Below are positions 8,645 to 9,951 of a stretch of DNA of 64,000 bases, in pieces. Positions within the stretch are counted from its first letter, which is position 1. Each line of letters begins with the position of its first letter. Location: the sequence record OR844650; one strand, 5' to 3'. The position numbers and the translations under genes are program-made. The notes beneath the pieces are model-generated. The model was not told the DNA's origin, did not search any database, and saw only the letters and a list, made by a program, of their open reading frames with translations. Origin of the DNA: Escherichia phage ECO103 4-12-1.

Positions 8645-9196
8645 CTATAGATAACTAATTAGTAAGTTTTCTTTTTGAACCAGATACTCCAATTCTTGTT
8701 TTGCTGTACCGATGAAGTTCTGTGTCATAAGATTATTATATCCCGCTTCTCGATTTTGTCCCTTAGAATAACGAGAAATATGACATAAATTTACACCAGC
8801 AACTTCTGCACTTGCATGTTTAGCATTAGTGTATCCATCTCTAATGTGTTTCAACTCGTCATAGGTTACTTCATAGCTAAAACTGTGACTGTTTGCACCT
8901 GGGTAAATTTCAAAAGTTTTGAGTGGTCGAAGATGGGAAACAAAAATATTGTAATCCATTTCTTCTTGAACTTCACGACGCAACGCATATTCTAGTGAGA
9001 TATCAGTACTTTCTACGGTTCCACCACATCCACCAAGAAGACCATCCCATCGTAATTGCAGTAATACTAAATTTACTTCTGGTATATCATTCAACTCATA
9101 GTTTTTGTAAGGGTTGCATTTTCTTGCAAAGAAATAACAAAATACAAAATTTGCACGTGTGCCATATTCACCAAAGGGAACTTCTTTAACACTCAT
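8645..9196 (-). CDS. Nudix-family hydrolase
   Basis: Nudix-box-like GGCGGTVESTDISLEYALRREVQEEMD (G-x5-E ... REVxEE) with a short insertion. Confidence 0.55.
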   Translation of the reverse strand: MSVKEVPFGEYGTRANFVFCYFFARKCNPYKNYELNDIPEVNLVLLQLRWDGLLGGCGGTVESTDISLEYALRREVQEEMDYNIFVSHLRPLKTFEIYPGANSHSFSYEVTYDELKHIRDGYTNAKHASAEVAGVNLCHISRYSKGQNREAGYNNLMTQNFIGTAKQELEYLVQKENLLISYL

Positions 9197-9951
9197 TTCA
9201 TACGTTCCTTAATTATAGTCTCTAGATGCGGTATTGCTTTGGTTGCTGGCTTGATAACTTTTTCATTAAACAAAAAATCATTATCATTTTTACGAATGTT
9301 AACATTAACACTATAACATGGTAATGCTGCTGCTAATCTCGACCATACCAGTACTGTATCGCTACTACCAATTACAATAACTGTATCATTTTCATTAAGA
9401 GATTTCAACACATTATTTCGTTCTTCGTAAATTGGTAAGCGAATACCATCAACATAACGATGATATTCTCCAATCATTACTACATTTGGTTTAGCAAAAA
9501 CATCATGTTTTGGTATGTATGGTTCGTATCCGCAGTTAATAACATTATAATCATCGGAATTGATACTATAATTTTCAATAACTTCGCACAAGTTTCCATG
9601 AAGTTTAAGCTCATGACCACCAATACGAGTATAAAGATCGTCCATGTTAGAAGTCATATGAAGGAAGCAATCACCATATTGATCTTCTAACGATTTTATA
9701 AAATAATGCATTGCATTCGGTTCGCATTGTCCCAATTTTACACGTAATGTATTATAGAAAGAATGAACAACATGATATTTTGTAGTTAAACTAGCAATGT
9801 TACATACATCATTAATTTTAAATGTATCCCACAAACCATCATCAAATCGAAAAGGTTCCATACCACTTTCAACAGAAAGTCCTGCACCTGATATAATCAG
9901 TAATCGCTTTTTACCTTCATTGCTTATAAATTTTTCTGATATCATATTCAA
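9193..9951 (-). CDS. Sir2-family (sirtuin-like) NAD-dependent enzyme
   Basis: GAGLSVESGMEPFRF, EPNAMHYF, TSNMDDLYTRIGG, KLHGNL and VIVIGSSDTV match the Sir2 motifs; no CxxC zinc ribbon. Confidence 0.8.
   Translation of the reverse strand: MNMISEKFISNEGKKRLLIISGAGLSVESGMEPFRFDDGLWDTFKINDVCNIASLTTKYHVVHSFYNTLRVKLGQCEPNAMHYFIKSLEDQYGDCFLHMTSNMDDLYTRIGGHELKLHGNLCEVIENYSINSDDYNVINCGYEPYIPKHDVFAKPNVVMIGEYHRYVDGIRLPIYEERNNVLKSLNENDTVIVIGSSDTVLVWSRLAAALPCYSVNVNIRKNDNDFLFNEKVIKPATKAIPHLETIIKERMK

Follow-up and report, generated by a model that had tools for sequence, protein, structure and literature searches.

Why would a jumbo phage encode a sirtuin directly beside a Nudix hydrolase, and what would the two enzymes do with nicotinamide adenine dinucleotide (NAD+)? 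This question is raised by a 64,000-nucleotide stretch of Escherichia phage ECO103 4-12-1 (sequence record OR844650; hereafter the window), in which a Sir2-family gene and a Nudix hydrolase gene overlap by four bases. The phage belongs to the jumbo myoviruses of genus Asteriusvirus (PBECO4/121Q group) within the Rak2-like group; the region is 99.9% identical to Escherichia phage BF17, 99.2-99.8% identical to G17, phAPEC6, PBECO4 and others, and 93.5% identical to 121Q. We found that the Sir2-Nudix pair is the head of a conserved five-gene block, whose enzymes almost certainly use up NAD+ and then clear away the resulting ADP-ribose compounds. The observation holds and concerns a larger unit than first noted, but it is not new: GenBank records of Asteriusvirus relatives already label the pair 'Sir2 / NAD-dependent deacylase' and 'nudix hydrolase', and in 2022 Iyer et al. 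(PMC9503650) described the neighbourhood and predicted NAD+-dependent RNA repair, with the sirtuin acting like KptA/Tpt1. The initial annotation of this DNA described the pair correctly, had its proposed unit partly right and missed that published prediction. We likewise favour RNA-end processing by Sir2, Nudix and the adjacent cREC (cyclic-phosphate-processing receiver-like) protein, with a probability of roughly 40%. The block is laid out as follows, all on the minus strand.

9193..9945, minus: Sir2 gene, predicted CobB-like sirtuin without zinc-ribbon cysteines, 250 amino acids (aa) (PF02146, phrog_2162)
9193..9196, minus: ATGA stop/start overlap of Sir2 and Nudix, read directly from the sequence
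8645..9196, minus: NUDT16/X29-family Nudix hydrolase, 183 aa (PF22327)
8636..8647, minus: Nudix TAG stop overlapping an AGGAG Shine-Dalgarno sequence, with a 9-nucleotide spacer to the cREC start, read directly
8315..8635, minus: cREC protein, 106 aa (PF20274)
8016..8318, minus: small membrane-type protein, 100 aa, 5 cysteines (phrog_14661 'membrane protein', 1.2e-44)
6516..7955, minus: PIN-PhoH fusion (PhoH2-type predicted RNase plus NTPase), 479 aa (PIN_4 7e-20, PhoH 7e-44)
6134..6155, minus: terminator-like hairpin, 9 pairs (5 G-C) plus a T-run, a consensus match only

A five-gene block in Rak2-like phages

We compared the locus by local tblastn with fetched loci from RaK2, BF, Munch and GAP32 (L002-L005) and PBECO4, and also examined two metagenomic lineages (L015 and L016). 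The order Sir2, Nudix, cREC, 100-aa membrane-type protein, PIN-PhoH was found in PBECO4, RaK2, BF, GAP32 and Munch, and the order Sir2-(x)-Nudix-cREC-PIN/PhoH was kept in 8 of the 8 Rak2-like lineages examined, down to 44-47% identity. Sir2 and Nudix therefore occur together in related phages, as they would in the NAD+-linked functional unit that had been proposed. Identities to the window proteins were as follows.

PBECO4 (Asteriusvirus): Sir2 100%, Nudix 99%
RaK2 (Alcyoneusvirus): Sir2 63%, Nudix 54%
BF (Eneladusvirus): Sir2 44%, Nudix 47%; Nudix and cREC form one 302-aa protein
GAP32 (Mimasvirus): Sir2 44%, Nudix 50%; Nudix and cREC form one 301-aa protein
Munch: Sir2 60%, Nudix 52%; an extra open reading frame (ORF) lies between them

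Two metagenomic lineages carry the same block, with sirtuins 47% (P0038) and 57% (P0030) identical to that of the window.

Both ORFs of the pair are present on the minus strand, and the bases AAATGAGT at 9193..9196 contain both the Sir2 TGA stop and the Nudix ATG, confirming the overlap originally described. The Sir2 ORF runs over 9193..9951 when opened from a TTG alternative start, the extent first given; the ORF stands, but the ATG at 9945 is the likelier start because AAGGA lies 6 nucleotides upstream and because the PBECO4 RefSeq record uses it, so that the gene becomes 9193..9945. ATGA junctions are frequent in this genome, occurring at 32 of 163 minus-strand stop-to-stop segments of at least 60 codons in the window and at 7 of about 53 annotated junctions in the PBECO4 stretch, and the Sir2/Nudix overlap alone is therefore weak evidence of coupling. 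In addition, an ORF of 118-122 aa separates Sir2 from Nudix in Munch (L004, 8620..8988), L015 (6755..7111) and L016 (6759..7127), and is not present between them in the window, RaK2, BF or GAP32. The Munch ORF had no Pfam match and no precomputed Pfam family is recorded for the L015 and L016 copies; its product may regulate the module or serve it as an accessory subunit. Across the lineages the gene linkage is thus kept but the ATGA junction is not, and translational coupling is no conserved trait of the pair.

The 'receiver-like' neighbour that had been suggested as a possible member of the unit is cREC (1.5e-22 and 80.5 bits against PF20274 cREC_REC, cut-off 27). Its fusion to Nudix in phages BF and GAP32 shows that it does belong there; a third fusion is the metagenomic protein P0041. 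Residues D8, D9, R11, D47, D49, H85, N88 and P89 are invariant among 10 diverse cREC members, so that the receiver-type aspartates D8, D9, D47 and D49 of the phosphoryl-processing receiver fold are kept. Iyer and colleagues named cREC and predicted it to be a cyclic-phosphate opener; by their own account, the family is experimentally uncharacterised. The flanks of cREC in phages without this Sir2 clade were mixed: Aeromonas phage 65 has a nearby tRNA nucleotidyltransferase and an HD hydrolase, and nothing telling was seen in Ralstonia RSP15 or Cellulophaga phi17:2.

Downstream, the earlier outline of the unit had missed the membrane protein and PIN-PhoH. The 100-aa protein has a single N-terminal hydrophobic segment (hydropathy maximum at residues 5-23), its start forms a second ATGA overlap with the cREC stop at 8315..8318, and it directly follows cREC in RaK2, BF, Munch and GAP32 (43-50% identity). 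L016 has a 102-aa ORF without a Pfam match at this position; L015 has no ORF of the 100-aa type after cREC and carries a Bax-inhibitor-1-family membrane protein (PF01027, 7675..8322) between Nudix and cREC. Some membrane component thus accompanies the module in every lineage examined. PIN-PhoH is the last block member in RaK2, BF, Munch and GAP32 (68-80% identity) and is also found in L015 and L016. Sir2, Nudix, cREC and PIN-PhoH all lie within 3.4 kb on one strand, and no terminator-like site was found between Sir2 and PIN-PhoH. The hairpin at 6134..6155 is the probable end of the transcription unit because it is the first terminator-like site downstream of the block. The promoter scan did not outperform shuffled sequence, giving 41 sites where 37 were expected, and an Rfam scan of 5000..13000 gave no match.

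Upstream, the HslV-like gene at 10177..10770, which had also been suggested as a unit member, was rejected: its position is not kept, the gene being absent from the RaK2, BF and GAP32 loci and located elsewhere in Munch, between Nampt and a 2H gene.

Such a constant arrangement could simply be inherited gene order in a compact genome, the Nudix enzyme being a nucleotide-pool sanitiser (acting, for instance, on non-canonical purines of the inosine di- or triphosphate (IDP/ITP) type) unrelated to the sirtuin. Besides the commonplace ATGA junctions and the ORF that can separate Sir2 from Nudix, this would fit the broad collinearity of Rak2-like gene order over tens of kilobases and the fusion of a NUDT16-like domain to Ham1/ITPase in some proteins (P0086). 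However, the flanks vary (HslV-like, Acb1, NARP2, HNH and membrane-protein genes) around a Sir2-Nudix-cREC-PIN-PhoH core that stays at 44-63% identity, and the Sir2-cREC link recurs in Proteus phage Mydo in quite a different gene order. Because of the Nudix-cREC fusions and this independent recurrence, we regard mere collinearity as very unlikely.

The sirtuin and the Nudix hydrolase

The Sir2 protein matched Pfam SIR2 (PF02146) with an E-value of 3.6e-20 and 73.1 bits (cut-off 24) over 178 of 180 model positions, and phrog_2162 at 2e-77. Its best PDB match was E. coli CobB (3e-22), followed by Sir2Af1/2 and SIRT5, and its AlphaFold (AF2) model (predicted local distance difference test score (pLDDT) 91.7, predicted template-modelling (TM) score 0.90) superposed on CobB-peptide complexes with TM scores of 0.77-0.86 in Foldseek. 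We aligned 16 clade members, some of them from T5-like, Mydo-like, rV5-like and Vibrio phages and 30-38% identical. The GAGxS NAD+ loop (G20-A21-G22-L-S24), N100, D103 and H116, the last within KLHGNL, are invariant or nearly so (16-27 clade members), and the sirtuin motifs noted at the outset are thus intact. Because its NAD+-binding and catalytic residues are complete, the enzyme should split off the nicotinamide of NAD+ and pass the ADP-ribose on to an acceptor. By tblastn, the clade is present in about 985 phage records, including T5-like, rV5-like and jumbo phages. In a metagenomic relative 64% identical to the window protein (P0025), the GAG motif of the NAD+ loop reads GNG and the cofactor loop is shortened; this relative may be an inactivated or divergent Sir2 copy.

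Compared with CobB and the class III sirtuins (PDB 1S5P, 6RXJ), the phage protein shares the fold, 28% identity, the GAGxS loop and the Asn/Asp/His set, yet departs from them at several points. No cysteine is conserved in residues 117-150 among the 16 aligned members, leaving the clade without the four-cysteine zinc ribbon: C119 of the window protein becomes K/T/L and C137 becomes L/V/I in relatives. AlphaFold still modelled a small beta-ribbon module at this segment, so that the reported absence of a zinc ribbon holds for the cysteines, throughout the phage clade, and not for the module. The Gln of the sirtuin 'TQNID' motif is Ser in the window protein (TSNMDD), and the clade has invariant residues of its own, namely C48 in 'VCNI', G139-Y140 and W201. 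Against the NCBIfam CobB equivalogs NF040867 and NF001755 the protein scored 85-93 bits, with cut-offs of 318-320; these comparisons indicate a CobB-like protein that is not a CobB orthologue.

We considered whether this could be a defence-type Sir2 NADase of the kind found in ThsA, DSR1/2, SIR2-HerA or Argonaute-associated (pAgo) systems, and rejected it. PADLOC gave no match at E <= 0.01, PF02146 was the sole Pfam match, the fold is CobB-like, and neither profile scans nor annotated neighbours revealed a HerA, TIR, SLOG or Argonaute gene that might act as a sensor partner. Between the two classes left open by the initial annotation, the protein falls with the sirtuins.

The Nudix protein had been taken for a generic ADP-ribose pyrophosphatase; phmmer and Foldseek place it in the NUDT16/X29 family instead. 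It matched PF22327 (Nudt16-like) at 2e-18 and 67.3 bits (cut-off 27), PF00293 at 2.2e-6 and its PHROG at 2.6e-90, and residues 37-179 matched X29 (1.2e-11) and human NUDT16 (4.9e-11) in a phmmer search of the PDB. With the AF2 model (pLDDT 93.0), the top 39 Foldseek matches were all NUDT16, X29 or TIRR (E-values 4e-14 to 9e-11, TM about 0.75-0.80), and the next Nudix family followed at 1e-7, an E-value gap of about 10^4. Residues E62, R74, E75, E78, E79 (REVQEE) and E131 are invariant in the family alignment; the protein is thus a family member with intact catalytic residues, and neither the His of KLHGNL in Sir2 nor the REVxEE glutamates, whose loss had been raised as a concern, show any change in the alignments. 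We mapped human NUDT16 residues onto the phage protein through the HMMER alignment, with roles from PMC6459841.

R49 (NUDT16 R50): diphosphate contact
E75, E78, E79 (NUDT16 E76, E79, E80): Nudix-box glutamates
E131 (NUDT16 E136): distal metal ligand
T60 (NUDT16 F61): active-site 'mouth'
E168, invariant (NUDT16 Q170): base contact

In NUDT16, E76 and E80 are metal ligands and E76 is the likely catalytic base (PMC6459841). The equivalents R49, E75, E78, E79 and E131 are all aligned and invariant in the phage family. In the purine pocket (human H24, I164, S166, Q170), I162 and T164 of the phage protein are conservative, Q170 is replaced by E168, and the H24 region falls outside the HMMER alignment, with an aromatic residue near phage position 23. 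Glu168 together with the small residue at the F61 position hints at an amino-purine preference and perhaps at bulkier conjugated substrates. An invariant glutamate here would suit an amino-purine (adenine) better than hypoxanthine, which argues against the pool-sanitiser idea above.

The phage Nudix therefore resembles NUDT16/X29 (U8 small nucleolar RNA decapping enzymes that hydrolyse ADP-ribose, IDP and NAD or flavin adenine dinucleotide (FAD) caps) in full-length homology (1e-11), fold, metal-binding Glu triad and Arg, and differs in its 23-26% identity, the F61-to-Thr60 and Q170-to-Glu168 changes, and its setting in a phage operon with a sirtuin and cREC. NUDT16-type relatives cut the diphosphate of free or macromolecule-attached ADP-ribose and of nucleoside diphosphate (NDP)-type RNA caps, and the phage protein is accordingly a predicted pyrophosphatase; PDB structures of NUDT16 include complexes with inosine monophosphate, ADP-ribose, di-ADP-ribose and FAD. 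The family is small, with 163 cluster representatives at E <= 1e-10 among 1.84 billion. Among 20 longer members scanned, the fusion partners were cREC, Ham1/ITPase, HD, Nmnat-like and tandem Nudix domains. A Sir2-Nudix fusion that could serve as a 'Rosetta stone' was found neither among the best 150 of 474 NUDT16-like representatives nor in those 20 multi-domain members. Because the partner domains are so varied and, in the members scanned, never a sirtuin, the substrate class of the Nudix cannot be read from homology alone. The phage subfamily occurs in 73 phage records, of which those listed are Rak2-like apart from a few Aeromonas phages; an IMG/VR scan with the Nudix alignment returned solely the 121Q and RaK2 genomes themselves.

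These assignments raise the possibility of a protein-directed sirtuin, which would deacylate (or ADP-ribosylate) host or phage lysines while Nudix and cREC clear O-acyl-ADP-ribose or trim protein ADP-ribose to phosphoribose. Its closest relatives in sequence and structure, CobB-peptide complexes and then Sir2Af and SIRT5, point this way, as do the full catalytic set including His116 and the acidity of the proteins, which they share with many soluble metabolic enzymes. NUDT16 itself hydrolyses both free and protein-conjugated ADP-ribose (PMC6459841; PMC8883491). Conversely, the zinc-binding cysteines of characterised deacylase sirtuins are missing from the whole phage clade, the CobB Y-x-x-R acyl-recognition motif is not kept (Y64 is followed by L67 and R68), and 93 bits is far from the 318-bit equivalog cut-off. 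There is also no Macro domain partner, the usual eraser of O-acyl-ADP-ribose and ADP-ribose (PMC9503650), and the recurrent linkage to RNA ligase, kinase, HAD 'Swiss-army-knife' (SAK) phosphatase and PIN-PhoH genes is left unexplained. We consider deacylation doubtful, though a serious contender.

RNA ends and alarm molecules as candidate targets

What favours the RNA-end reading is the company that sirtuin and cREC keep in unrelated phages, where the link between them is seen again alongside genes for RNA ligase, kinase and phosphatase. The sirtuins there belong to the same clade (30-38% identity) and adjoin RNA-end-healing enzymes. In Proteus phage Mydo, whose sirtuin is 33% identical, the run comprises a calcineurin-type phosphoesterase, an Rnl1-type RNA ligase, cREC, a P-loop kinase, a small ORF, Sir2 and an ATP-dependent ligase; a ligase, a cyclic-phosphate opener, a kinase and an NAD+-user make up the parts list of fungal Trl1 plus Tpt1 (healing and sealing enzymes of Trl1: PMC10946426). 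In T5-like phages, the sirtuin is followed by the RNA-repair HAD-SAK phosphatase. The window, Mydo and T5-like contexts reproduce the three neighbourhood types of PMC9503650. Furthermore, the catalytic residues of Sir2, Nudix and cREC are all invariant.

In this scheme, which follows Iyer et al. 2022, the acceptor for the sirtuin would be a 2'-phosphate on damaged RNA (for example, tRNA cleaved by anticodon nucleases of the host), arising after opening of an RNA 2',3'-cyclic phosphate. A phosphate oxygen would take over the attack on C1'' of NAD+ that the acyl oxygen otherwise makes; the conserved histidine would then activate the ribose 2''-OH to displace the RNA. cREC could open the resulting ADP-ribose cyclic phosphate, or the RNA cyclic phosphate, and Nudix would split the product into AMP and ribose phosphate. 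Sirtuin chemistry would by analogy resemble the two-step mechanism of Tpt1 (PMC11417386). The proposed likeness to Tpt1/KptA and Trl1 is that NAD+ would be used to take a 2'-phosphate off RNA, ADP-ribose cyclic phosphate being released. The difference lies in the fold: Tpt1/KptA has an ADP-ribosyltransferase fold (PTS_2-RNA), whereas the phage enzyme is a Rossmann-fold sirtuin without homology to it. No ADP-ribosyltransferase fold was found in the phage NAD+-user, whose sole Pfam match is SIR2 and whose fold matches are sirtuins; any likeness to Tpt1 would therefore be functional and not by descent.

Relative to the neighbourhood of Iyer et al. 2022, the window has the same Sir2, Nudix, cREC and PIN-PhoH genes on one strand with no terminator-like site between them, and BF is a direct relative of the block (Sir2 44%, Nudix 47%, cREC 62% and PIN-PhoH 68% identical). 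It differs in having no 2H gene within its 64 kb and in encoding Nudix and cREC as separate genes. The earlier description was a prediction without experiments and did not note the NUDT16-type Nudix or the PIN-PhoH fusion.

The window also encodes RNA-repair genes 7-19 kb from the block (Pnkp, an Rnl1-type ligase, PTH2 and two calcineurin-type phosphoesterases), listed here with an adjacent ligase.

16548..17351, minus: calcineurin-type phosphoesterase
20911..21669, minus: calcineurin-type phosphoesterase
17359..18777, minus: ATP-dependent DNA ligase
19988..20407, minus: PTH2-type peptidyl-tRNA hydrolase
25077..26009, minus: T4 Pnkp-type kinase-phosphatase
27106..28248, minus: T4 Rnl1-type RNA ligase

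Together, these end-processing enzymes form a cluster spanning 16548..28248 on the minus strand. No tRNA genes were found in the 64-kb window.

Several points weigh against RNA as the substrate. The whole RNA argument rests on gene neighbourhood, the Sir2 fold is nearest to the protein deacylase CobB, and RNA is not a known substrate of any sirtuin. The proteins of the block are acidic throughout (isoelectric points of 4.6-6.5 in the Sir2 clade, 4.2 for cREC and 4.8 for PIN-PhoH), which is not expected of RNA-binding enzymes. The window already encodes a T4-type Pnkp plus Rnl1 route, and that route leaves no 2'-phosphate. In relatives, the top-scoring assignment of the '2H' gene next to the sirtuin is Acb1, an anti-CBASS enzyme, and other sirtuin neighbours are counter-defence NAD+-salvage genes. 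Moreover, the fusions of NUDT16-like domains to Ham1/ITPase, HD and Nmnat-like domains could indicate a small-nucleotide substrate. The stronger form of the RNA reading, in which the sirtuin is an RNA enzyme and non-homologous Tpt1/KptA substitute that strips 2'-phosphates from (or ADP-ribosylates) RNA ends, with Nudix and cREC finishing the reaction, strikes us as rather unlikely. In a more unusual variant, the sirtuin and Nudix would together tag a target, either protein or RNA, with a phosphoribosyl group.

The genes upstream of the block bear on a further explanation, in which Nudix and cREC would degrade alarm molecules that derive from NAD+ or are cyclic nucleotides (cyclic ADP-ribose isomers of the Thoeris type, or ADP-ribose-phosphates) and the sirtuin would make or consume them or aid NAD+ salvage. 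Every other Rak2-like locus examined has Nmnat-Nudix and Nampt, which constitute NARP2, immediately upstream of the block, and an Acb1-family phosphodiesterase (PF23474, 3.6e-15) adjoins it in BF, GAP32, Munch and L016. NARP2 has been shown experimentally to defeat NAD+-depleting defences (bioRxiv 10.1101/2024.02.11.579819), and breakdown of cyclic ADP-ribose phosphates was the role proposed for Nudix-cREC fusions by the group that defined cREC. On the other hand, a sirtuin that itself consumes NAD+ would be a strange helper when NAD+ is being depleted; the distant sirtuins of the clade adjoin RNA-repair genes and not known anti-defence genes; and Sir2, Nudix and cREC matched no PADLOC or known anti-defence family. 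The block also persists independently of these neighbours: Asteriusvirus has neither NARP2 nor Acb1, and RaK2 lacks Acb1. We therefore judge counter-defence to be unlikely.

The Acb1-like 2H gene is annotated as 'RNA ligase' (BF gp110, 7507..7953 in L003; equivalents in GAP32, Munch and L016). The 3.6e-15 Acb1 match is its best in Pfam, and the BF copy also matches the 2'-5' RNA ligase superfamily weakly. Standing beside the sirtuin, it could serve immune-signal degradation rather than RNA-end healing. In the window, the corresponding upstream space (9955..11721) holds the HslV-like gene, small membrane ORFs and a ClpP/NfeD-like protease, where most other Rak2-like loci have NARP2 and the 2H gene. 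By tblastn with the BF 2H protein, no 2H gene was found in the 64-kb window, and no Asteriusvirus record was among the best 60 of 325 phage records matched; RaK2 lacks the gene as well. Nampt and Nmnat gave no match in the window, and no Asteriusvirus was among the Nampt orthologues. Given that the NARP2 and Acb1-like genes are missing from Asteriusvirus, the core must function without them.

Membership of the block itself in a NARP pathway was rejected: the window has no Nampt or Nmnat match, although no search was aimed at Adps, Namat, PnuC or NadR. The block has no component in common with NARP1 (Adps, Namat), NARP2 (Nampt, Nmnat) or NARP3 (PnuC, NadR). These pathways resemble it in acting on NAD+ during phage infection, and the NARP2 genes are its immediate neighbours in related genera, but NARP pathways rebuild NAD+ whereas the Sir2 block consumes it.

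Elsewhere in the window, a gene about 2.3 kb downstream of PIN-PhoH (3279..4250, minus) encodes a 323-aa protein with a C-terminal WGR domain (PF05406, 1.1e-10) and an N-terminal 250 aa without assignment. WGR domains are best known from PARP enzymes, and this may be another protein linked to NAD+ or ADP-ribose, or one that senses nucleic-acid breaks. The region 50598..60963 (minus) holds runs of similar-sized ORFs, including two paralogous families of eight and four members (BLASTP E <= 1e-5).

Significance of the block for phage NAD+ biology

To the published neighbourhood, our analysis adds the assignment of the Nudix enzyme to the NUDT16 family, the absence of zinc cysteines throughout the phage sirtuin clade together with its CobB-like class, and a delimited conserved core with cREC in and the HslV-like gene out. 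It also adds the low evidential value of the ATGA overlap and the recognition of Asteriusvirus as a minimal version without NAD+-salvage and Acb1 genes. Experimental work on phage sirtuins of this clade or on cREC was not found in the searchable literature; the Asteriusvirus block, having the core and neither set of accessory genes, is a convenient minimal form for experiments, and its phages can be propagated on laboratory E. coli. If RNA ends are indeed the substrate, this would be the first sirtuin shown to act on nucleic acid, and phages would possess an NAD+-dependent repair of RNase damage that evolved separately from Tpt1. If the block instead serves deacylation or counter-defence, it would be relevant to the handling of NAD+ by phages, since NAD+ is destroyed by many bacterial immune systems.

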